64,000 nt of DNA, from positions 14,006 through 78,005 of the forward strand of contig CAMJCK010000009.1 of NCBI GenBank assembly GCA_946404125.1. Reading direction: 5' to 3'. Below are positions 10,907 to 58,618 of the stretch, piece by piece (the first letter of the stretch is position 1; every line of letters starts with the position of its first letter). The DNA is from an uncultured Bacteroidota bacterium. GTDB taxonomy: Bacteria; Bacteroidota; Bacteroidia; Bacteroidales; SZUA-534. The translations under genes were made by a program, and so were the position numbers. A model generated the notes under the pieces. That model saw nothing but the letters and a program-made list of their open reading frames with translations, was not told the origin of the DNA and searched no databases.

Positions 10907-11683
10907 ATGCCGATAATAGAGAATCCGCAAACAACTAATTGCCAATGCTTTGCGCTAACGGGGCGCAACATTGTGCTGAAAGCCGACGGCAGCGCCCTTA
11001 CGCTGGCCGACCTGACTGAAATAAAAACTTTAGATAGCAATGCCGATTTGTTTGAAGAACAAGAGTTTGGCATTTGTGTTTTGAACTTCGAGACTGCCGA
11101 GCCACTGCCCGACCGTTTCGTCACAAAAACCATCCGTCAGTTCTTCAACGAGAGCGACGAGCCGACCGTTTTCCGCACATCGCGGGCAAAGGCGGTGGCC
11201 AACTGGCGGCAGAGCACGAAATTTTGCTGCACGTGTGGTGCAAAACTCATTGAGAGCAAGCAGTTTACAGCGCGCGAGTGTCCGCAGTGCGGCAAGATTC
11301 ATTTTCCGCGCATCGAGCCGTGCGTGATTGTGCTTGTGAGCCGCGGCGACAAGATTCTGCTTGCCCGCCACGTTCAGCGCAATCAGGACATCTACGCCTG
11401 CATTGCGGGATTCATTGAAGGCGGCGAGACGCCCGAGCACGCCGTTGAGCGCGAGTTGCAGGAAGAAATCGGCATCCGCGTGAAGAACATCCGCTACCGC
11501 GGCAGTCAGAGTTGGCCCTTTCCCGACCAACTAATGCTCGGATACACAGCCGATTACGAGAGCGGCGAAATCCGCCTGCAGAAAGACGAGATTGCCGACG
11601 CTGACTGGTTCAGCCGCGACAACTGCCCCGCAAGCCCGCAGCCTGGCTCGATTGCTTATAGGCTGATTCATACCATTTATTGA
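10907..11683 (+). CDS. nudC: NAD(+) diphosphatase (NADH pyrophosphatase), Nudix family
   Basis: Zinc ribbon CCTCGAKLIESKQFTARECPQCG followed by Nudix box GFIEGGETPEHAVERELQEEIGI. ATG at 10907 lies within ORF 10850-11683. Confidence 0.85.
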   Translation: MPIIENPQTTNCQCFALTGRNIVLKADGSALTLADLTEIKTLDSNADLFEEQEFGICVLNFETAEPLPDRFVTKTIRQFFNESDEPTVFRTSRAKAVANWRQSTKFCCTCGAKLIESKQFTARECPQCGKIHFPRIEPCVIVLVSRGDKILLARHVQRNQDIYACIAGFIEGGETPEHAVERELQEEIGIRVKNIRYRGSQSWPFPDQLMLGYTADYESGEIRLQKDEIADADWFSRDNCPASPQPGSIAYRLIHTIY

Positions 11684-11711
11684 AGGACTGAAGGATTGAA
11701 GGATTGAATCC
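11681..11711 (+). repeat. Tandem octamer array (tgaagga[c/t]) carrying stop triplets
   Basis: TGA at 11681 (the nudC stop itself), 11689, 11697 and 11705. Period 8, so all three frames are closed. Confidence 0.7.
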
Positions 11712-14599: not shown

Positions 14600-14666
14600 T
14601 GAAGGTTGAGAAAGTTTAGTTTTTGACATCAGACTACAGACATCAGACATTTATATTTTCAATAAG

Positions 14667-14695
14667 TCAATCCTTCAATCCTTCAATCCTTCAAT
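14667..14695. repeat. Tandem octamer array tcaatcct x3.6 abutting the uvrB start
   Basis: tcaatcct repeated with period 8. Its reverse complement carries TGA in all three minus-strand frames. TAA at 14695-14697 directly precedes the uvrB ATG. Confidence 0.7.
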
Positions 14696-14697
14696 AA

Positions 14698-16713
14698 ATG
14701 CCCTTCGAGATTAACTCGCCATTCAAGCCTACGGGCGACCAGCCGCAAGCCATCAGGCAACTTGTGGACGGCCTGAACAGCGGCCAGCAGTATCAGACGC
14801 TGCTTGGCGTGACGGGTTCGGGCAAGACGTTCACCATTGCCAATATGCTTGAGCAGGCGCAGCGTCCAGCGCTCATCTTGAGCCACAACAAGACGCTCGC
14901 GGCGCAACTCTACAGCGAGTTCAAAGAGTTTTTCCCGAACAATGCGGTTGAGTATTTCGTCTCGTACTATGACTACTATCAGCCCGAAGCCTACATCCCC
15001 GTAACGGACACCTACATTGAGAAGGATTTGAGCATCAACGACGAGATTGAGAAATTGCGTCTGCACACCACATCGTCGCTGCTGTCGGGCCGCCGCGACG
15101 TGATTGTGGTCTCGTCGGTGTCGTGCCTTTACGGCATTGGCAACCCCGACGATTTCTACAGCAACAGCATCAGCGTGAAGGTGGGCGAAAACGTTGGCCG
15201 AAACCAACTGCTGCGCCGCCTTGTCGACGCGCTCTACTCGCGCAACGAAGTGGATTTCAGCCGCGGCACGTTCCGCGTGAAGGGCGACACGGTTGACGTC
15301 TATCTTGCCTACGGCGACTCGGCCTACCGCCTAATGTTTTGGGGCGACGAGATTGACCAAATCGAAGTCTTTGACCCGCTGAACGGCAGCGTCATCGACC
15401 GCCCCGAGCAGGTTTCCATCTACCCCGCAAACATCTTCGTGACAACGCAAAGCCGCATCCAGCAGGCCATCCGTATGATTCAGGACGACCTTGTGGCGCA
15501 GGTTGAATATTTCAAGAGCATCGGCAAGCACCTTGAAGCCAAACGGCTCGACGAGCGCGTGAACTACGACCTTGAAATGATACGCGAATTGGGGCACTGC
15601 CCAGGAATTGAGAACTATTCGCGCTATTTCGACGGGCGCGCGGCGGGCACTCGGCCGTTCTGTCTGCTCGATTATTTCCCGAAAGATTTCATCACGGTCA
15701 TCGACGAAAGTCACGTCACCGTGCCGCAGATTCACGCAATGTTCGGCGGCGACCGCTCGCGCAAGGAAAACCTTGTGGAATATGGATTCCGCCTGCCTGC
15801 CGCGCTCGACAACCGTCCGCTCAAGTTCGACGAGTTTGAAGCGCTGACGGGCCAGACCGTGTATGTGAGTGCCACGCCCGCCGATTACGAACTAATGAAA
15901 TGCGGCGGCGTGATTGTTGACCAGGTGATTCGCCCGACGGGCCTTCTCGACCCGCCGATTGACGTGCGTCCGAGCCTGAATCAGATTGATGACCTTGTGG
16001 GCGAAATCAACCGCCGAGCCGCCAAGGACGAGCGTGTGCTTGTGACGACGCTCACCAAACGTATGGCCGAAGAGTTGCAGAAATATCTGACCCGTATGGG
16101 AATACGGTCGAATTACATTCACAGCGATGTGGACACGCTCGAGCGCGTGAAGATATTGGACGACCTGCGCAACGGTCTGTTCGACGTGCTTGTGGGCGTC
16201 AATCTGCTGCGTGAGGGCTTGGACCTGCCCGAAGTGTCGCTGGTGGCCATTTTGGACGCCGACAAGGAAGGATTCCTGCGCAACGAGCGCTCGCTGACGC
16301 AGACCGCAGGCCGTGCCGCCCGCAACGTGAACGGCCTTGTGATTATGTACGCCGACCAAATCACCGACTCAATGCAGCGCACCATCGACGAAACCAACCG
16401 CCGCCGCGAGAAGCAACTGCGCTACAACGAAGAGCACGGCATCACCCCGACGCAAATTGTCAAGGCAAAACGCCGCACCGTGGGCACCGACGAGACCGCC
16501 ACCGCACAGTATTACGTCGAGCCCGAGAAGGTGAACCTTGCCGCCGAGCCTGTTGTGGCCTATATGAGCCGCGAAGCCCTGCAGAAGGCCATCGACAAGA
16601 CCAAGAAGCAAATGGAACGCGCCGCCGACAAACTCGACTTTATGGAAGCCGCCCGCATGCGCGACGAAATGTTTGAGTTGCAGAAGGTGTTGGCGGAAAA
16701 GTTTAAAAGTTGA
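14698..16713 (+). CDS. uvrB: Excinuclease ABC subunit B
   Basis: PTGDQPQAI, Walker [11 protein letters not shown], helicase motifs ([19 protein letters not shown]) and the C-terminal UVR motif [14 protein letters not shown]. Confidence 0.97.
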
Positions 16714-20655: not shown

Positions 20656-20686
20656 AACTCCTAACTCCTAATTCCTAACTCCTAAA
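20656..20686 (+). repeat. Tandem heptamer array (aactcct) carrying stop triplets
   Basis: TAA at 20662, 20669, 20676 and 20683 (period 7) closes all three frames 36 nt after the HTCS stop. Confidence 0.7.
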
Positions 20687-20808
20687 CACCAAAATGCAAC
20701 CGATTGTTATTTTTGTTGCATTTTGTTCCGAGTGTCGATTTTTTGCATATTTTACAACCGAAAGCATTTTAACTAAACACATATAGTAACACACTAAAAA
20801 TCAAGACT

Positions 20809-22023
20809 ATGAGACGTTTAAACAAAATCAGAAACTATTGTTTGATGGCTTGCGCGATGATAGTTGCGGGATGCTCGCAACAGACTGCGCAACAAGACAA
20901 TCAGCGCTGGGTTGGAACCTGGGGCACAGCCGTGCAACTCACCGAGCCGCACAACTGCCCACCCGAGCCGGGAATCAGCGGCAACACCATCCGCCAGAAA
21001 ATCCGCGTGTCAATCGGCGGCGAGACCGTGCGCCTGAAACTCTCGAACGAGTTCGGCAACGACGTGCTGAAGATTGCCGCCGTGAGCCTCGCCCCCGCCC
21101 TCGAAGGCAGCAAGATTGACGCCGCAAAGGCTGTGAACGTGCTGTTCGGTGGAAAGCAGGCCATTGATATCGAGAAGGGCAAATCGGTTATTTCCGATGC
21201 GCTGCAGTTCGCGCTGACACCGCGTATGGACGTGGCCGTGACCATTGCCTACACCTTTGTGCCGAGCGACATTACTGGCCACCCAGGCTCACGCACCACT
21301 TCGTACATTCTGACAGGTAACGAACTGAATAACACCGATTTTGCCGATGCTGTCACCACCGACCATTGGTACACCATTGAGCGCCTCGACGTGGTGGCCG
21401 ACGAACCCACTGCAGCCATTGCCATTGTGGGCAACTCAATCACCGACGGCCGCGGCTCGACGACCAATCAGGTCAACCGCTGGACCGACGTCTTCTCTGA
21501 GCGCCTGCTAGCCAATCCCGCCACAAGCAATCTGGCCGTGCTCAATATGGGCATTGGCGGCAACTGCGTCATTCGCGGCGGACTGGGCCCCAACGCTTCG
21601 GTGCGCTTCAACCGCGATGTGATTGAGCAACCCGGCGTCAAGTATGTTATTGTGTTTGAAGGCGTTAACGATATGGGCTACTCGCCAAATCCATCGGCAA
21701 CTGAGAAAGAACTGATTGACGCCTACTCGAAGATGATTGACACGGCGCACGCCCACGGACTGAAGATTTACGGCGCAACCGTAACTCCGTTCAAAGAGTG
21801 CTTCTACGGCTCACCCGAGAAGGAAGAGTGCCGTTTGGCCGTGAACAACTGGATTCGCACCTGCGGCAAGTTCGATGCCGTAATCGACTTTGAGAAAGCC
21901 ATTTGCAGCGATTCGGACACCACCGTAATGAACCCCAATCTGCACGACAACGACAACCTGCACCCCAACGCCAACGGTCACAAGGCTCTGGGCGAGTATG
22001 TTGATTTGGGGCTGTTTGAATAG
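20809..22023 (+). CDS. SGNH/GDSL hydrolase family lipoprotein (probable carbohydrate esterase)
   Basis: Lipobox MIVAGCSQQ. SGNH blocks GNSITDG, GIGGN, GVNDM and DNLHPNANGH. Confidence 0.8.
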   Translation: MRRLNKIRNYCLMACAMIVAGCSQQTAQQDNQRWVGTWGTAVQLTEPHNCPPEPGISGNTIRQKIRVSIGGETVRLKLSNEFGNDVLKIAAVSLAPALEGSKIDAAKAVNVLFGGKQAIDIEKGKSVISDALQFALTPRMDVAVTIAYTFVPSDITGHPGSRTTSYILTGNELNNTDFADAVTTDHWYTIERLDVVADEPTAAIAIVGNSITDGRGSTTNQVNRWTDVFSERLLANPATSNLAVLNMGIGGNCVIRGGLGPNASVRFNRDVIEQPGVKYVIVFEGVNDMGYSPNPSATEKELIDAYSKMIDTAHAHGLKIYGATVTPFKECFYGSPEKEECRLAVNNWIRTCGKFDAVIDFEKAICSDSDTTVMNPNLHDNDNLHPNANGHKALGEYVDLGLFE

Positions 22024-22200
22024 AGAGTATTAAGGAACGCAGATGACACAGATTTAACGGATTTTACAGATTATTTTGAATTGAATTACGAATTACGAAT
22101 TTTGATTCAACTTGTTAAACCTGTTAAACATTAAACTCAACGTTCTAAACAGCGAAGCGTTTCAACTCTTTAAACTTATAACTTATAAACTTTCAACTCA

Positions 22201-23823
22201 ATGAAACACCTATCAATCACCCTGTTAGCCGCTGCCGCGATAATGTGCGGATGCAACGGCCAGAAGAGTGCGAGCACCGAAACGGGCTTCACCAACCCGA
22301 TGATTTGGGCCGATGTGCCCGATATGTCGATGATGCGCGTAGGCGACACCTATTATATGAGCAGCACCACAATGCATATGAACCCAGGTGTGCCCATTAT
22401 GAAGTCGAAAGACCTGAGCAACTGGCAGATAGCGAGCTACGCTTACGAGACCTTGGGCGACCAGGACGAGACGATGCTCTTGAACGGCAAAAACACCTAC
22501 GGCAAGGGCTCGTGGGCAAGTTGCATTCGCTACGTGAACGGCAAATTCTTTGTCAGCACCTTCGACCAGGTGACAGGCAAAACCTACTTTTTCACCACCG
22601 ATAACATTGAGAATGGCAAGTGGGAGCGCCACGAGTTCCGTCCTTCGCACCACGACCATACCATTGTGTTTGAAGAAGATGGACACATTTATATGATAAA
22701 CGGCGGCGGAAAAATCTTCATTCGCGAAGTTGAGCCCGATTTCAGCGGAATCAAGCCAGAATCAGAGAAGGTTCTGATTGAGAACGCTGGTCTGCCTGCT
22801 GGCGAAAACCTGATGCTTGGCGCCGAAGGCTCGCAGATGTTCAAAATCAACGGCAAATACTATCTGTTCAACATTTGCTGGCCGCGCGGCGGTGTGCGCA
22901 CCGTTATCTGCCACCGCGCCGACAGTTTGTTCGGCCCGTACGAAGGCCGCGTTGTGCTACAGGACAAGGGCGTGGCTCAGGGCGGACTCATTGACACGCC
23001 CGACGGCCGCTGGTTCGCCTACCTATTCGGCGACCGTGGCGCTGTGGGCCGTATCCCCTACCTTGTTCCCGTTGTATGGGAAGATGGATGGCCAGTTCTG
23101 GGCGTCGATGGCAAAGTGCCCGAAACACTCGACCTGCCCGCAAACGGCAGTCTGATTCCAGGCATTGTCGATAGCGATGAGTTCGACGGCGACCAGCCGA
23201 AAATTGTCTGGCAGTGGAACCACAATCCAGTCAATTCTTTATGGACGATGACCGAACGCAAAGACTTTATCCGCTTCCGCACCGACCGCACCGACACTCT
23301 GTTCACCCAGAGCCGCAATATGCTCACACAGCGCACCATTGGTCCGAAATGCTCTGGCAGCGCTTGTCTCGATGCCTCGAACCTGAAAGATGGCGATGTT
23401 GCGGGACTTGCCCTGCTGGCTGGAAAATTCGGCTTTGTGGCCATTCAGAACGATGGCGACAAAAAATCGATTGTGATGGTTAACAACCAGCCCGAAGCCA
23501 ACGGCGGCGGTGCACCCTGGCCGCCACGCCGCGGCGTTCAGCACGTTGTGGCAAGCGTTCCTGTCGATGCCACCACCGTCTATTTCAAAGCCGACTGCGA
23601 CTTCAGCCGCATTGCCGACGAAAGCGCCATTGGCAGCCACGGCGTTGACAAGGCCGTCTTCCACTACTCGCTCGACGGCAAGCAGTGGAACCAAATCGGC
23701 GACACCCAGCCAATGTCGTACAGCCTCGACCACTTTATGGGCCAGCGCTACGCACTCTTCTTCTACTCTACCAAAGAGCCAGGCGGCTATGCCGATTTCG
23801 ACTGGTTCAGGATTAGTGAGTAG
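22201..23823 (+). CDS. Glycoside hydrolase family 43 protein (beta-xylosidase / alpha-L-arabinofuranosidase type) with C-terminal beta-sandwich
   Basis: Lipobox AAIMCGC. NPMIWADVPDMSMMRVGDTYYMSSTT, then EGSQMFKINGKYYLF and a GH43 five-bladed propeller pattern, followed by a approx 200-aa C-terminal domain. Confidence 0.85.
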   Translation: MKHLSITLLAAAAIMCGCNGQKSASTETGFTNPMIWADVPDMSMMRVGDTYYMSSTTMHMNPGVPIMKSKDLSNWQIASYAYETLGDQDETMLLNGKNTYGKGSWASCIRYVNGKFFVSTFDQVTGKTYFFTTDNIENGKWERHEFRPSHHDHTIVFEEDGHIYMINGGGKIFIREVEPDFSGIKPESEKVLIENAGLPAGENLMLGAEGSQMFKINGKYYLFNICWPRGGVRTVICHRADSLFGPYEGRVVLQDKGVAQGGLIDTPDGRWFAYLFGDRGAVGRIPYLVPVVWEDGWPVLGVDGKVPETLDLPANGSLIPGIVDSDEFDGDQPKIVWQWNHNPVNSLWTMTERKDFIRFRTDRTDTLFTQSRNMLTQRTIGPKCSGSACLDASNLKDGDVAGLALLAGKFGFVAIQNDGDKKSIVMVNNQPEANGGGAPWPPRRGVQHVVASVPVDATTVYFKADCDFSRIADESAIGSHGVDKAVFHYSLDGKQWNQIGDTQPMSYSLDHFMGQRYALFFYSTKEPGGYADFDWFRISE

Positions 23824-34554: not shown

Positions 34555-34731
34555 TTTCTTAGTATAGTGTTAAAATCTGGGGGCGAAATTATGAAAATGC
34601 AAGAAAGCTCCGATGCTGTCAGCAAACTTTTCCGGAATAATCATAAATATCAAAACTTAACAACAATGTTGGCTGACAAGTGATTATTATGCTTTCTACC
34701 AGATACTTGCCTTATGTGGTCAGCTTCTTCC

Positions 34732-35370: not shown

Positions 35371-35630
35371 AGTTTTTATTTTGGTGAATTGTTTAATTGG
35401 TGAACTGGTGAATTGGTGAATCGAAAGGTTTAGTCGCTTCGCTGATTTGAGTAATGTTTAATGTGTAAAGTGTAATGAATCGTAATTTTTAATTCAAAAA
35501 TACTAAATACTAAATAACTAATGCCTAATGCCTAAAACCTTGTTTTAAGTGTAAAGTGTAATGAATCGTAACTCGTAATTCATAATTCGTAATTCACTAG
35601 TGCCTAATCCCTAACCCCTAACACCATATT
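35371..35630. repeat. 260-bp spacer built entirely of tandem 7/8-nt word arrays and longer direct repeats
   Basis: ggtgaatt-type octamers (TGA at 35385, 35401, 35409, 35417). 23-bp direct repeat gtgtaaagtgtaatgaatcgtaa at 35463-35485 and 35549-35571. atactaa/aatgcct heptamers. On the minus strand, gttaggg-type heptamers give TAG (as cta) at 35597, 35604, 35611 and 35618 just after the ROK stop. Confidence 0.8.
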
Positions 35631-36578
35631 TTACAAATTAGCCAAGACAAGAGCGCTAGCGCCGAGAATTGCCGCATTGTCGCCCAACTGCGACGGCAGC
35701 ACCTGCGTTTTGTTCTTGAAGATATTCAGCATATTGGCTTCCATTGCGCGGCGTGTGGGCTCGAAGAGAATCTCGCCTGCCTTTGCCAAACCGCCAAACA
35801 AGAATATGGCTTGCGGGCTTGTAATTGCCACAAAATCAGCCAAGGCACGGCCCAACATTTCGCCTGTGAACTCAAAAACTTCTCGTGCAATGGCGTCGCC
35901 CCGAGCGGCCACCTGCGACACTTTCAAAGCCGTCAGTTCGCTGTTTGGAATTGAGCGTAACTCACTGTCAATATTGCGTTTAGCCAACAGTTCGGTTGCT
36001 GTGCGCACCACGCCCGTTGCCGACACGTAGGTCTCAAGGCAGCCCTTGCGCCCGCAGCCGCAGTCGCGCCCATCACGCTCAACAATCACGTGGCCACACT
36101 CGCCTGCAAATCCGTCGTGGCCGTAGAGCATCTTGCCGCCAGTCACAATGCCGCTGCCAAGGCCCGTTCCAAGGGTAATCTCAATGAAATCGGTCATTCC
36201 CTTTGCACCGCCGTACACCATCTCGCCAATGGCGGCTGCGTTGGCGTCGTTGGTCAGGAATACGGGCACACCGAATTGATTCTTAAAGGCTTCAACAATC
36301 TTCACAAGGCCCTTCCACGGCAGGTTGGCGGCATTCTCAATGCAGCCGCTGAAGTAGTTGCCGTTGGCCGCGCCAATGCCAATGCCCACAAGTTTGCAAG
36401 GCTGCTCAATCGTGCCAAGCAATTGCCTTATGCCTTCGGAAACAGCATCAGCAAACGCCTGAAAAACAACGTGCCCGCTAGTGGGTATGCTGCTTTGGGC
36501 GAGTATCTCGCCATTGTCGGTCACAAGGCCGAAAGCGGTGTTTGTGCCGCCAATATCGATTCCAACTGAAAGATTCAT
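35631..36578 (-). CDS. ROK family sugar kinase (glucokinase-like)
   Basis: GIDIGGTNTAFG, ATPase fold, and the zinc motif GHVIVERDGRDCGCGRKGCLE. Confidence 0.9.
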   Translation of the reverse strand: MNLSVGIDIGGTNTAFGLVTDNGEILAQSSIPTSGHVVFQAFADAVSEGIRQLLGTIEQPCKLVGIGIGAANGNYFSGCIENAANLPWKGLVKIVEAFKNQFGVPVFLTNDANAAAIGEMVYGGAKGMTDFIEITLGTGLGSGIVTGGKMLYGHDGFAGECGHVIVERDGRDCGCGRKGCLETYVSATGVVRTATELLAKRNIDSELRSIPNSELTALKVSQVAARGDAIAREVFEFTGEMLGRALADFVAITSPQAIFLFGGLAKAGEILFEPTRRAMEANMLNIFKNKTQVLPSQLGDNAAILGASALVLANL

Positions 36579-36677
36579 ATTTTTAAAAGTTTAGAGTTGA
36601 GAAGTTTAGTCGCTTCGCTGTTGAGAAAGTTGAGTGATTCTCTATTTAATCCAACATTAAACTGTTGAGTTTTAAGA

Positions 36678-37097
36678 TTATACGATTAAATCATTTGTGC
36701 TTATTTCTTCATCAAATTCGTTAATTAACTCTGGCAAAAATGATTGGTCTATTTCATAATTGATAATCAATGATGAATGGCACATTGTATTATCCATTTC
36801 AAAATGATTTGACTGTATTTTACAAATCATTTGTTCGTTTTCTTTATAAAAGTAAATTTCTAATTCTCTTTCAATTAAAGTGAGATTTGCGGAACATCTT
36901 TTACCATTATAGAAATCAGACAATTCATTCTTAAATGTTTCAAATGAGCCACATAAATCCCCAACAGTTAAAGATGCACTGAAATATTTATACGCAATTT
37001 TAATATCGAACTCCCAAATAGGTACAACATCTTGTTTTATCTGTGTCCTTTCAAGAGTCATTACCAATGTTCTGTGTTTATCATAAAAGTGTATCAT
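36678..37097 (-). CDS. Hypothetical protein (AT-rich orphan)
   Basis: 139-aa ORF with clean ATG, visibly AT-rich relative to its neighbours. No signal peptide and no recognised motif. Confidence 0.55.
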   Translation of the reverse strand: MIHFYDKHRTLVMTLERTQIKQDVVPIWEFDIKIAYKYFSASLTVGDLCGSFETFKNELSDFYNGKRCSANLTLIERELEIYFYKENEQMICKIQSNHFEMDNTMCHSSLIINYEIDQSFLPELINEFDEEISTNDLIV

Positions 37098-55176: not shown

Positions 55177-57798
55177 TTGAAAACAAAAAGCCTTCTTGCG
55201 ACATTGTTGATATGCTTAATCATCAATTTAACAGTTGGGGCTCAAACCACTGATAATGATTCTGTTAACGCTGTCGCGAATATAGATACAACAGTAATGA
55301 CCAGCGCGGCTGACACGCTTGCGACGGCGGCTGATTCGTTATCGGTGGCCGACTCGTCGGCGACAAAAAAGCCGAAAGCGAAGAAGAATCTGCTGACCAC
55401 CGACGTGAAAACCAGCGCCAAGGATTCCACCATTTTCTCGCTCGACGGCAAGAAAGTGTTCCTTTTCGGCGATGCCAAAATCGAATATGAGGACATTGTT
55501 CTTACCGCCGCCTACATTGAGGCCGATATGGACCAGGGCATCATCTACGCCGAGGGTGTGGCCGACTCGACTGGCAACATCGATGGCCGGCCGGTGTTCA
55601 CTCAAGGCGACGAAGAGATGAAGGCCATCAACATCACCTACAACGTGAACACCAAGCGCGGCTACATTGAAAAACTCTACACCGAGCAGGAAGACGGCTA
55701 TCTGCATAGCGAACTGACTAAAAAAGAAGTGGATAACTCGATTAATATGCTTCACGGCAAGTACACCACCTGCGAGCTTGAGGACCCGCACTTCTACCTT
55801 GAGCTGACCAAAGGCAAGTACATTCCTGACAAGGCCATTATTGCCGGACCGTCGTATATGGTGATGGCCGACATTCCGCTGCCGCTGGTGATTCCGTTCG
55901 GCTACTTCCCCATCACCAAAAAGAAAACTTCGGGTTTTCTGATGCCACGCGTGGGCGAAGAGAACAACCGCGGTTTCTTCCTGTCGGACGGCGGCTACTA
56001 CTTTGCCGGCAACGATTATGTTGATTTCACGCTTCGCGGAAGCATCTACTCGAAAGGCTCGTGGTCGCTCAACGGCTCGTCGCGATACACGCTGCGATAC
56101 AAATTCTCGGGCGACGTGAACGTGACCTACGCCAAGAATGTATTCGGCGATAAAGGGTTGAAAGGCTACAGTGAACCGCAAGAATACCGCATCGGTTGGT
56201 CGCACAGGCAGGATCCCAAGGCCCGGCCGAACAGCACCTTCTCGGCCAGCGTCAACTTCTCGTCGAGCGGCTACAACAAGTACCAGACCAGATCGTCGCA
56301 AGACTATCTGACCAACACCACATCGTCGAGCATATCGTACCAGATGAACCGGATTATGAACTCGCCGTTCAGCCTGTCGATTAACATCCGGCACACGCAA
56401 AACACGTGCGACTCAAGCCTGAGCCTTACATTGCCGAATTTTTCCCTGACAATGAGCCGCATACAACCGTTCAAACGCCGTAAGGCCGTTGGTCCGATGC
56501 GGTGGTACGAAGACATCGACATAAGCTATAAGGGAGTTTTCCAAAACGAGGTTAAAACCCACATTGACAGCCTTTTCACACACGGAACGCTTGAAAAATT
56601 CGAATATAGCGTAAAGCACAGCCCAACGCTAACCAAATCATTTAAAGTGTTGAAATACTTCAGTTTGTCGCCAGGTGCATCGTACGGCGAGCGGTGGTTC
56701 TTCAAACGCCACTACATTGAGGCGATTAACGACACCACCCCCATCGACTCAAAGCACTATCGCGAACGCGAGGAACGAGGCTTCTACCGCGTTTACGACT
56801 ATAGTTTCAGCTTGAGGCTGAACACCACGCTCTACGGTATGTACAGCTACCGCCGCGGACCGGTGAAGGCTCTGCGCCACGTTATCACACCAACCGTGAG
56901 CTACAGTTGGCGCCCCGATTTCGGTCAGGAAAAATTCGGGTACTACGAGACCGACCCGCGCGACCCCAAAGGCACGAGACTATATTCGCCCTATGGCAAT
57001 AAGGACATACCCGGCAGCGGACGAAGCAGCTCGTTCAGTTTCTCACTCAACAACAAGCTGGAAATGAAGGTGAAAGACGAATCGGACACCGTGAAACAGG
57101 AACGCAAGGTTCCTATATTTGAAGCGCTGAACTTCAGCACATCGTACAATATGCTGGCCGAAGAGTTCAAATGGGACAACCTGCGCATTACCGCCAAAAC
57201 AACGATTTTCAAAACTTTCCCGATACAAATAAGCGCCACTGGCTGTTTCTACGCAACCGACTCGTTGGGCAAGAAAATCGATGAATTCGAATATAACCAC
57301 ACCGGCAAGCCGTTCCGAATCACAAACGCCTCAACATCATATAGTTACACACTGAGTTCCGACAAGCTGTATGGCAAGAACAAGAAGAAAGACAGCGATG
57401 AGAAAACGCCGGTTGTGGATGCCGAGCACTCAATGTACGACGACAGCGATCTTGAGGAATACGATTATTTTGACATTCCGTGGAGTCTGCATTTCGATTA
57501 TAGTCTCACCTACTCGAAGCCCGGCCGCGTTGGCAAACTGTCGCAATCGCTCAGTTTCAGCGGCGATTTCAGCCTGACGCCCAAATGGAAAGTTGGCTTT
57601 TCGTCTGGCTACGATTTCGACTCCAAACAGTTCACCCACACACGGTTCAGCCTTTCGCGCGACCTGCACTGCTGGGCGGCTTCGCTCAACCTTATTCCGT
57701 TTGGACCGCGGCAGAGCTACACATTCAACATCGCCGTCAAATCGGCAATTCTGCAGGACTTGAAGTACAACAAGACTAAGAGCTGGTACGACAATTAA
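55177..57798 (+). CDS. lptD: LptD-like LPS-assembly outer membrane protein
   Basis: Signal peptide. OstA-like N-domain (VFLFGDAKIEYEDIVLTAAYIEADMDQGIIYAEG) and a long beta-barrel region. TTG is the only start that retains the signal peptide (in-frame stop at 55156). Confidence 0.75.
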   Translation: MKTKSLLATLLICLIINLTVGAQTTDNDSVNAVANIDTTVMTSAADTLATAADSLSVADSSATKKPKAKKNLLTTDVKTSAKDSTIFSLDGKKVFLFGDAKIEYEDIVLTAAYIEADMDQGIIYAEGVADSTGNIDGRPVFTQGDEEMKAINITYNVNTKRGYIEKLYTEQEDGYLHSELTKKEVDNSINMLHGKYTTCELEDPHFYLELTKGKYIPDKAIIAGPSYMVMADIPLPLVIPFGYFPITKKKTSGFLMPRVGEENNRGFFLSDGGYYFAGNDYVDFTLRGSIYSKGSWSLNGSSRYTLRYKFSGDVNVTYAKNVFGDKGLKGYSEPQEYRIGWSHRQDPKARPNSTFSASVNFSSSGYNKYQTRSSQDYLTNTTSSSISYQMNRIMNSPFSLSINIRHTQNTCDSSLSLTLPNFSLTMSRIQPFKRRKAVGPMRWYEDIDISYKGVFQNEVKTHIDSLFTHGTLEKFEYSVKHSPTLTKSFKVLKYFSLSPGASYGERWFFKRHYIEAINDTTPIDSKHYREREERGFYRVYDYSFSLRLNTTLYGMYSYRRGPVKALRHVITPTVSYSWRPDFGQEKFGYYETDPRDPKGTRLYSPYGNKDIPGSGRSSSFSFSLNNKLEMKVKDESDTVKQERKVPIFEALNFSTSYNMLAEEFKWDNLRITAKTTIFKTFPIQISATGCFYATDSLGKKIDEFEYNHTGKPFRITNASTSYSYTLSSDKLYGKNKKKDSDEKTPVVDAEHSMYDDSDLEEYDYFDIPWSLHFDYSLTYSKPGRVGKLSQSLSFSGDFSLTPKWKVGFSSGYDFDSKQFTHTRFSLSRDLHCWAASLNLIPFGPRQSYTFNIAVKSAILQDLKYNKTKSWYDN

Positions 57799-57804
57799 TT
57801 GAAG

Positions 57805-57822
57805 TCCCGATAGCTATCGGGA
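57805..57822. terminator. Perfect 18-bp palindrome between convergent genes
   Basis: tcccgatagctatcggga lies 7 nt after the lptD-like stop. No T-run, so termination function is uncertain. Confidence 0.55.
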
Positions 57823-57910
57823 TGAAGGATTGAAGGACTGAAGGATTGAATTACGAATTACGAATTACGATTAAACAGTTAACCGATTCAACAATTCACC
57901 GATTCACCAA
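57823..57910. repeat. Back-to-back tandem 8-nt and 7-nt word arrays carrying stops on both strands
   Basis: Plus strand: TGA at 57823, 57831, 57839 and 57847 (period 8). Minus strand: TAA (as tta) at 57851, 57858 and 57865 (period 7), and TGA (as tca) at 57888, 57896 and 57904 (period 8). Confidence 0.8.
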
Positions 57911-57919
57911 TACAGGCTT

Positions 57920-58618
57920 CTACCCTTTCACTCCCAAAATATACCCTGTTCCGTGAACGTTGGTAATCTCAATGTTCGGGTCCGACTTCAGGTATTTGCG
58001 CAGTTTGGTGATAAAAACATCCATACTGCGGGCGGTGAAATAGCCCGTCTCGCCCCAGATTTTCTCGAGCGTCAGATTGCGGTCAACAACGTTGTTAACG
58101 TTCTGATTCAGAAAGCATAGCAGTTCCGCTTCTTTGGGCGAGAGTTTGGTTTGCGAGCCGTCTTCAAACGTCAGTGTGCGGTTTTTCACGTTGAACACAT
58201 AGCGGCCAATCGTCAGTTCCTCGACAGAATTATCGGGCTGCTGACTTGCGGGCGTGCGTTTCAGAATGGCTTTTATCTTATAGATAAGCAGTTCAGAATC
58301 AAATGGTTTGGTGATATAATCGTCGGCACCAATCTTGTAGCCTTTAATCATATCTTCCTTCATATTCTTGGCAGTCAGGTAGATAATCGGCGTGGCGGGC
58401 TTCAACTGCTTGATTTCGGCACCAATGGTGAAGCCGTCGACGTGGGGCAGCATCACATCAAGAATGCAAAGGTCGAACTGACCAGCCTTGAAGGTGGACA
58501 CCGCGTTCAGGCCGTCATCGACGAGCGTAACGTCCAAATCGTTCATTTCCAGGAACGAACGCAGCACCGAGCCGAAATTCACATCGTCCTCAACCAAAAG
58601 AATCTGTTGCTTTGACAT
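57920..58618 (-). CDS. OmpR/PhoB-type response regulator
   Basis: REC (ILLVEDDVNF...DVMLPHVDGF...ITKPF) plus a winged-helix output domain (LSPKEAELLCFL...GTGYIL). Confidence 0.9.
   Translation of the reverse strand: MSKQQILLVEDDVNFGSVLRSFLEMNDLDVTLVDDGLNAVSTFKAGQFDLCILDVMLPHVDGFTIGAEIKQLKPATPIIYLTAKNMKEDMIKGYKIGADDYITKPFDSELLIYKIKAILKRTPASQQPDNSVEELTIGRYVFNVKNRTLTFEDGSQTKLSPKEAELLCFLNQNVNNVVDRNLTLEKIWGETGYFTARSMDVFITKLRKYLKSDPNIEITNVHGTGYILGVKG

Follow-up and report, generated by a model that had tools for sequence, protein, structure and literature searches.

Polar short-unit tandem arrays in the intergenic spacers of a rumen Bacteroidales genome and their relation to stop codons and PF05635 genes

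Results

Repeat arrays in the spacer between the lptD and response regulator genes

The spacer at positions 57799-57919 separates two convergent genes, namely that of an LptD_2 protein on the + strand (55177-57798, TAA stop at 57796-57798) and that of an OmpR-type response regulator on the - strand (57920-58618, TAG stop at 57920-57922, reading cta on the + strand). Positions refer to the window, i.e. the whole stretch of 64 kb which was analysed and in which TRF returned 53 rows of short-period arrays. The genome containing it (3.46 Mb, 48.6% GC, 102 contigs) has as its near relatives rumen MAGs labelled Salinivirgaceae or Bacteroidales. Read along the + strand, the TAA of lptD is followed by the perfect 18-bp palindrome TCCCGATAGCTATCGGGA, an array of TGAAGGAT/TGAAGGAC units, an array of GAATTAC units and five 8-mers of the CGATTCAC type. 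The palindrome (57806-57823, no strand assigned) is inserted in the TGAAGGAT array with TGAAG on each side. The 3.5 copies of TGAAGGAT/TGAAGGAC found by TRF on the + strand at 57823-57850 form a G-block behind the lptD stop, and the TGA triplets at 57823, 57831, 57839 and 57847 shut all three frames within this array. Next come 3.3 perfect copies of GAATTAC (57848-57870, + strand, TRF), which carry no stop triplet on the + strand and TAA on the minus strand. The last array (57868-57911, - strand, TRF, units of 8/16 nt) reads CGATTAAA CAGTTAAC CGATTCAA CAATTCAC CGATTCAC on the + strand, where it constitutes a C-block; on the - strand it consists of TGAATCGG-type 8-mers and thus represents the G-block behind the stop of the response regulator gene. 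An intrinsic terminator was sought in this spacer and none was found. The spacer folds into a long imperfect hairpin of moderate stability (z -2.8 and -2.1).

In the relative G003 the lptD spacer measures 67 nt instead of 121 nt, harbours neither arrays nor the palindrome, and the stop is shifted. The L003 spacer contains five copies of TGAAGGAY and three of CGATTCAA and, like that of G003, lacks the TCCCGATAGCTATCGGGA palindrome at the orthologous site. The shifted stop is visible when window positions 57790-57800 are compared with L001/G003: the TAA has become CAA in G003, and the protein is seven codons longer and ends at a TGA. Protein C-termini thus differ between strains at array-bearing gene ends.

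Further arrays in the window

Comparable arrays occur at other gene borders of the window, and the genes ending at two of the sites named in the sequence-only reading of this DNA encode a NUDIX protein and a hybrid two-component system. At 11679-11708 (+ strand, TRF) 3.8 copies of ATTGAAGG are present, the first of which provides the TGA stop of the NUDIX gene. The G-block at 1637-1670 (ATTTAGG, 4.7 copies, + strand, TRF) begins at the stop of the preceding gene. C-blocks are found at 20656-20685 (AACTCCT/AATTCCT, 4.3 copies), at 1704-1751, where arrays of CATTCAAT / TCAATTAA reach the ATG at 1750, and at 14625-14695, where 3.7 copies of GACATCA are succeeded by 3.6 copies of TCAATCCT which end 3 nt short of the ATG at 14698 (all + strand, TRF). 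TCAATCCT is the reverse complement of the TGAAGGAT word. More complex mosaics occupy, on the + strand, 22083-22198 (2.7 copies of GAATTAC, 2.3 of AACCTGTTA, and CTTTAAA-type units stopping 3 nt short of the ATG at 22201) and 35381-35633, the latter being composed of seven arrays (TTGGTGAA in 5 copies, GTAATGT, AAATACT, CTAATGC, AAGTGTA, TCGTAAT and CCTAACC). The GAATTAC copies of the former are missing in G003, whose counterpart of the latter is shorter by approximately 140 nt. No Rfam matches were obtained when the window was searched for known RNA families.

Several further features of these regions were recorded. The segment 34555-37130, whose spacers are the most array-rich in the window, is a rearrangement hot spot compared to G003: the latter contains approximately 19 kb of extra sequence at window 34600-34719, the gene at 36678-37097 is replaced, and the ROK gene is only 86% identical between the two genomes, versus 92-96% elsewhere. 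Upstream of the gene at 20809 (window 20700-20810) the promoter-proximal TGCAACCGATTGTTATTTTTGTTGCATTTTGTTCCGAGTG is conserved across the genus, including genomes with another upstream neighbour gene (G002, G014), and the AACTCCT array accompanies it. The mini-hairpin sequence GCGAAGC is part of a dispersed motif, AACAGCGAAGC(G), of which 80 copies are present genome-wide, 74 of them in spacers. In the window the motif is located at 22145-22165, 35405-35425 and 36605-36625; it often lies within arrays of TAAAC-type words, and in some cases the 18-bp palindrome interrupts it.

Abundance, periods and vocabulary of the arrays

For genome-wide counts genes were called with a simple hexamer model and TRF was run on the resulting 2335 spacers as well as on dinucleotide shuffles thereof; arrays of at least 2.8 copies were counted in 337 kb of spacer DNA versus 3.1 Mb of coding DNA. 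The period spectrum shows one maximum, at 7, and a tail. We counted 274 spacer arrays of period 7 (3.1 in the shuffles), 120 of period 8 (3.3), 62 of period 9 (2.0, corresponding to an approximately 30-fold enrichment), 17 of period 10 (1.5) and 17 of period 11 (0.3), compared to 11 of period 6 (3.3) and 4 of period 12. The proposal that the arrays represent a slippage-type repeat class is in line with the predominance of periods 7 and 8 over 6 and 12. The further expectation that periods divisible by three are avoided was borne out only insofar as periods 7 and 8 dominate, and fails for the strongly enriched period 9. A "not divisible by three" pattern was accordingly rejected as arrays of period 9 outnumber those of 10 or 11. 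The coding DNA contains 20 arrays of period 7, 13 of period 8 and 52 of period 9, so that the density of period-7 arrays amounts to 0.81 per kb in spacers versus 0.006 per kb in CDS. Spacers between divergent genes are array-poor (0.57 per kb versus 1.4-2.1 per kb in the others). With a looser cut, arrays affect 7.5% of all spacer bases and 516 of the 2335 spacers (approximately 22%).

The vocabulary is small: the period-7 arrays are made from 61 distinct 7-mers and the period-8 arrays from 36 distinct 8-mers, the leading words being AGGATTT (29 arrays), TGAAGGAT (27), AAGTTTT (22), CACCGATT (18) and GGGTGTT (17). The last is the only one among the frequent words with GGG. In 74% of the units one strand is devoid of G or C. 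Variable columns number one or two per word and recur across loci, and copy number declines smoothly from approximately 2.5 without any step at 3. The 40 commonest 7-mers of the genome do not include TAACTGA.

Stop triplets within the arrays

The sequence-only reading had claimed that arrays of this type close all three frames with stop triplets, usually on the strand of the gene which has just ended, and had suggested a frame-independent translational backstop. All 33 stop positions which it gave, for the lptD spacer and six further sites, are correct in the sequence. Within 30 nt of a gene's stop codon the claimed strand preference is evident, 54 arrays having their stops exclusively on the sense strand and 6 exclusively on the antisense strand, as a backstop would predict. 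For arrays generally it does not hold, the corresponding counts in co-directional spacers being 64 and 60, and farther than 30 nt from the gene stop 23 sense-only arrays face 50 antisense-only ones. Likewise, orientation relative to the preceding gene is non-random up to 30 nt after the stop and random over all co-directional spacers. Furthermore, 125 of the 188 arrays within 30 nt of a stop shut all three sense frames, and genes with an array 4-30 nt downstream somewhat favour TGA or TAG as their own stop (65% versus 51%, p = 0.018), an effect which we regard as weak.

Stop triplets are indeed more frequent than composition predicts, as they occur in 70.6% of the unit-strands versus 56.1 ± 1.4% of letter-permuted units and 41.5% of random spacer k-mers. 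This enrichment is, however, present on both strands. When the columns of each array were permuted with letters and period kept, 92 after-stop arrays showed three-frame closure on the sense strand versus 78.8 ± 5.3 expected (2.5 sd), while on the antisense strand 60 did so versus 30.7 ± 4.7 expected. A sense-specific stop excess beyond composition, which a fail-safe device should display, was therefore not found; the antisense excess is the larger one. An apparent conservation of stop columns within arrays (7.3% versus 14.8% mismatches) was dismissed as pseudo-replication of few words. Counted per word, the variable columns lie outside the stop triplet in 6 of 8 words, which is not significant.

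Strand polarity of the arrays

Arrays located no more than 30 nt after a stop codon carry more G than C on the sense strand in a ratio of 110:23. Up to 30 nt before a start codon this preference is mirrored, with 7 arrays having more G and 96 having more C on the sense strand. In convergent spacers the ratios are 15:1 and 1:19. The ordering becomes most obvious in spacers with more than one array. On the top strand, adjacent arrays follow each other as G then C in 81 cases versus C then G in 7, and the first and last arrays of such spacers are of the G...C type in 74 cases versus C...G in 1, independent of gene orientation. The rule is followed by 111 arrays from single-array spacers and broken by 28; arrays filling a short spacer reveal no preference (3:3), and pooling of all co-directional spacers yields 156:163 for the G-rich strand. 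In G031, a member of another Bacteroidales family which uses different words, the after-stop rule holds as well (10:2, stops sense-only in 9:1). Hence, either strand read in 5' to 3' direction presents G/T-rich word versions first and C/A-rich ones second, and each spacer is a G-block/C-block module under this polarity rule. The rule needs neither G-quadruplexes nor stop codons and holds for about a hundred words.

Two conceivable causes of the orientation were discarded. Local composition has the right sign, as the background from which arrays had been masked shows a skew of the same sign (±0.02-0.12; G of 0.13-0.15 at -1 to -20 and a GC skew of +0.04 to +0.12 after stops), yet it is far too weak. 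A directional growth of arrays towards the gene was rejected since no gradient of unit degeneracy is present within arrays or flanks.

Turnover among relatives

Synteny with G003 (RUG13583) extends over 48 kb at 92-96% nucleotide identity. Array-free spacers of this region have the same length in both genomes and are 97-99% identical, the indels being located in the array spacers. At the site orthologous to the AACTCCT/AATTCCT array, the 4.3 copies of the window compare to approximately 24 in G003, 11 in G014, 9 in G012 and 5 in G002, and the array is absent from G007, G015 and G004. A metagenome scan using a conserved flank matched one contig, from which the array is absent. A retention of arrays with at least three units at orthologous gene ends, as expected of a fail-safe device, was not observed among relatives of 92-96% nucleotide identity. 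The array density per 100 kb sampled ranges from 8 to 28 in the genus and from 0 to 2.5 in the other genera of the family, and reaches 21.7 in one other family (G031).

PF05635 genes inside inverted arrays

PF05635 denotes the 23S rRNA intervening-sequence protein, an Avd-like four-helix bundle, and the genome contains one clear gene of this family (G000 C1:125770-126084). It is located between AAGGTTGAG-type and CTCAACCTT-type 9-mer arrays, the CTCAACCTT-type arm being the reverse complement of the AAGGTTGAG-type one. In other genomes of the genus word arrays flank 10 of 11 and, in a second set, 18 of 20 PF05635 loci, with a G-block before and a C-block behind the gene in approximately 13 of the 17 informative loci of the second set. 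Polar word blocks of the kind seen in ordinary spacers thus form inverted arms around PF05635 genes in this genus, and many arms employ words which belong to the vocabulary of the genome (GGTGAATC with 18 arrays, CTAAACTT with 11, AACACCT with 8, GAGTAAA with 8 and AAGGTTGAG with 5). As the C-rich version follows directly upon the PF05635 genes' own stops, a rule centred on genes is broken at these loci while a G-block/C-block module fits. The PF05635 loci (C1:125650-126200, designated L088, and L091-L120 from sister species) lie between ordinary genes, inside inverted word arrays. The arms have periods of 6 to 16 nt, one of them being made up of 14 copies of AACGCA.

Irrespective of array density, 37 of 41 relatives possess PF05635 genes, and the copy number of these genes does not predict that density, so that most arrays are not traceable to such elements. 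A complementary partner in the same spacer exists for only about 8-12% of the arrays, and an inverted partner with a score of at least 14 for 36 of 448 arrays versus 12 in the control. Arms which share a spacer do not pair better than those taken from different spacers, nor do array-bearing spacers fold better than array-free ones (z -1.72 versus -1.46). We therefore rejected the idea that arrays in general are hairpin arms, given the few cognate partners and the missing advantage in pairing or folding.

The PF05635 family resembles the DGR accessory protein Avd (PMC10053308). The intervening sequences (IVS) of 23S rRNA which harbour an S23p/IVP ORF (PF05635) are alike in that a small four-helix-bundle gene lies within inverted arms, which in the present genus are tandem arrays drawn from the vocabulary of the spacer arrays. 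They differ from the loci described here, whose PF05635 copies lie between protein genes rather than in rRNA; moreover, most arrays of the present genome have neither a gene nor a complementary partner.

The 18-bp palindrome

The palindrome TCCCGATAGCTATCGGGA exists in 84-93 copies in the genome, almost exclusively in spacers (e.g. C9:4330, C6:23321, C33:15373 and 15404). It usually lies within a word array, the portions to its left and right having the same skew, and an exact direct repeat of 4-6 nt (mode 5 nt) flanks 43% of the copies versus 1.9% of random spacer positions. Within the genus, each of the 16 genomes contains it (7-81 copies), and its presence in other families is patchy (34 copies in G033). 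The palindrome looks like a miniature insertion element which targets arrays. An assignment to REP/BIME elements with a RAYT was rejected because the HUH gene (4720-5886) is absent from G002, G014, G013, G009 and G033, which hold 25-41 palindrome copies.

Discussion

Heptameric repeats of the STRR type were reportedly described in cyanobacteria by Mazel et al. in 1990. According to the account of Mrazek, Guo and Shah 2007 given in PMC4679880, LSSR(5-11) repeats are over-represented, with heptanucleotides the commonest, reside in non-coding DNA and occur sporadically across taxa, and polymerase slippage was proposed as their mechanism. To the extent covered by that account, the likeness with LSSR(5-11)/STRR repeats comprises units of 5-11 nt, the prevalence of heptamers, the non-coding location and the sporadic taxonomic distribution, and the surveys mention neither a polarity rule nor multi-word mosaics nor a link to a gene family. 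Rehm 2015 (PMC4692102) found GGGAATC in Xanthomonas and GGGGA(C/T)T in Nostoc on the sense strand within 50 bp after stop codons, overlaps with the stop included, and on the antisense strand within 50 bp before ORFs. These heptamers are seldom encountered where ORFs diverge, and their length differs among close relatives (PMC4692102). The arrays studied here have in common with them the placement rule, the few units per array and the extensive length variation among close relatives. They differ in comprising approximately 94 words instead of one, in the frequent periods 8 and 9 and in words which are G-poor, without G-quadruplex potential and without a four-unit preference, and which contain stop triplets; neither GGGAATC nor GGGGAYT includes a stop triplet on either strand. 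Four or more GGG tracts and a preference for four units, which characterise the G-quadruplex class, were looked for in our arrays and not found. Further differences from the Rehm heptamers concern the host, here a rumen Bacteroidales genus, the link to PF05635 genes and the invasion by an 18-bp palindrome. Finally, MacGregor 2015 reported TAACTGA direct repeats from Beggiatoaceae, Cyanobacteria and five Bacteroidetes which yield stops in all three frames, and noted other heptamer repeats in Bacteroidetes spacers (PMC4679880). The TAACTGA repeats are likewise intergenic heptamers (2-6 copies, up to 43) which abut starts or overlap stops, but that system employs a single word, mostly in forward orientation just upstream of starts, whereas placement here follows the G/C skew (PMC4679880). 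The statement of the sequence-only reading that no description of such arrays was known is thus superseded by Mrazek 2007 (cited in PMC4679880), Rehm 2015 and MacGregor 2015. In period abundance, confinement to non-coding DNA, depletion between divergent genes, conformity to the Rehm placement rule and copy variation, our arrays agree with the LSSR(5-11) class.

We consider it probable that the arrays are a multi-word Bacteroidales variant of the known heptameric/LSSR(5-11) repeat class, polar and resized by slippage, that their stop codons are a by-product and that many of the arrays without a gene are parts of PF05635-type elements. They would be local copies of a genome-wide, hypervariable, STRR-like family of short-unit repeats (7 more frequent than 8, and 8 than 9 nt), with words drawn from a limited, lineage-specific vocabulary, and the pattern of variation suggests that strand slippage makes copy number grow and shrink. 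Because of the polarity, the sense strand beside a stop codon displays the G/T-rich version, and the one beside a start codon displays the G-poor version. The G/T-rich version lacks C and places T before purines where units join, which makes TGA, TAG and TAA frequent in it; as most periods are not divisible by three, consecutive units shut all three frames. We infer that all-frame closure results from word composition, period and polarity, rather than from a selected translational backstop. Many gene-less arrays are probably arms, half-elements or relics of small palindromic PF05635-type elements, which would explain why the same words recur at many loci. As candidates for the origin of the polarity we consider a property of the PF05635-type elements, a selective filter imposed by translation signals, and a function at the RNA level.

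Selection for a backstop which halts read-through and frameshifted ribosomes in every frame behind genes appears highly improbable to us. It would account for the sense-only stops near gene ends, for the frequent closure of all three sense frames, for the slight sense excess over letter-permuted units and for the choice of TGA or TAG in the preceding gene. It does not account for a polarity which is mirrored, and even stronger, before start codons, nor for a stop excess which is larger on the antisense strand. Copy numbers extend from 2 to beyond 20 and show no jump at 3, arrays of period 9 are enriched and arms of period 6 exist. Orthologous gene ends of close relatives have no arrays or different ones, and the seeming protection of stop columns comes down to 6 of 8 words in a per-word count. 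In addition, stop-free words such as GGGAATC and GGGGAYT show the same geometry (PMC4692102), and PF05635 genes have the C-rich, stop-poor version right after their own stops. An alternative which dispenses with mobile elements, and which we deem unlikely, lets arrays arise anywhere and in either orientation by slippage in situ and subjects them to a filter from neighbouring expression signals: SD-independent Bacteroidota leaders would tolerate only G-poor, A-rich versions free of start codons, and near 3' ends only stop-bearing versions, which fix the C-terminus at any copy number, would be tolerated. In accordance with such a filter, only 15 of 107 before-start arrays have a start codon on the sense strand, compared to 69 with one on the antisense strand; of 444 arrays, 87 touch or overlap a stop codon, which they often supply, and copy numbers are distributed as in a birth-death process. 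The array-masked background has a skew of the same sign, but one far too weak to produce an orientation of 83% and 93%. Moreover, the filter explains neither why the same few words with the same variable column occur at many unrelated loci, nor the lack of preference in arrays filling a short spacer (3:3), nor the breach of both gene-centred rules by PF05635 genes.

Similarly improbable is a role of the arrays as functional RNA or DNA signals, be it as RNase III-type stems formed by G-block and C-block, as sites of RNA- or DNA-binding proteins or as directional Rho-loading pads of C-rich, G-poor RNA. The spacer between lptD and the response regulator gene, which folds into a long imperfect hairpin and has no intrinsic terminator, would suit such a role, as would the rarity of arrays between divergent genes (0.57 versus 1.4-2.1 per kb) and the fact that any transcript running from a spacer into a gene would read C-rich, G-poor words. 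A general folding advantage and a pairing of cognate arms are, however, missing, a single sequence-specific binder is hard to reconcile with approximately 94 different words, arrays turn over rapidly at orthologous sites, and no Rfam matches exist. The same geometry is encountered in Nostoc, a cyanobacterium, and cyanobacteria are not known to possess Rho. Somewhat less doubtful, though still tentative, is the proposal that the polar blocks are arms or remnants of small mobile elements which occur across phyla and whose full form contains an Avd-like PF05635 gene, the elements or their protein seeding, orienting and spreading the arrays. The inverted, polar arms around PF05635 genes speak in its favour, and the independence of array density from PF05635 copy number speaks against it. 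We retain the polar, slippage-resized, multi-word variant of the LSSR(5-11) class as the preferred explanation; the mirrored polarity, the larger antisense stop excess, the lack of a copy threshold and the turnover speak against the backstop suggested by the sequence-only reading.

Repeats of the heptamer type have been noticed since 1990 in cyanobacteria, Xanthomonas, Beggiatoaceae and others. The present analysis adds two leads, namely their tie to PF05635 genes and an 18-bp palindrome which appears to insert into them with a 5-bp duplication. If the mobile-element proposal were true, the placement rule of heptamers would be a property of the element and not the result of selection on neighbouring genes. 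For genome annotation it is relevant that about a fifth of the spacers and many gene ends are shaped by these arrays, which supply stop codons.
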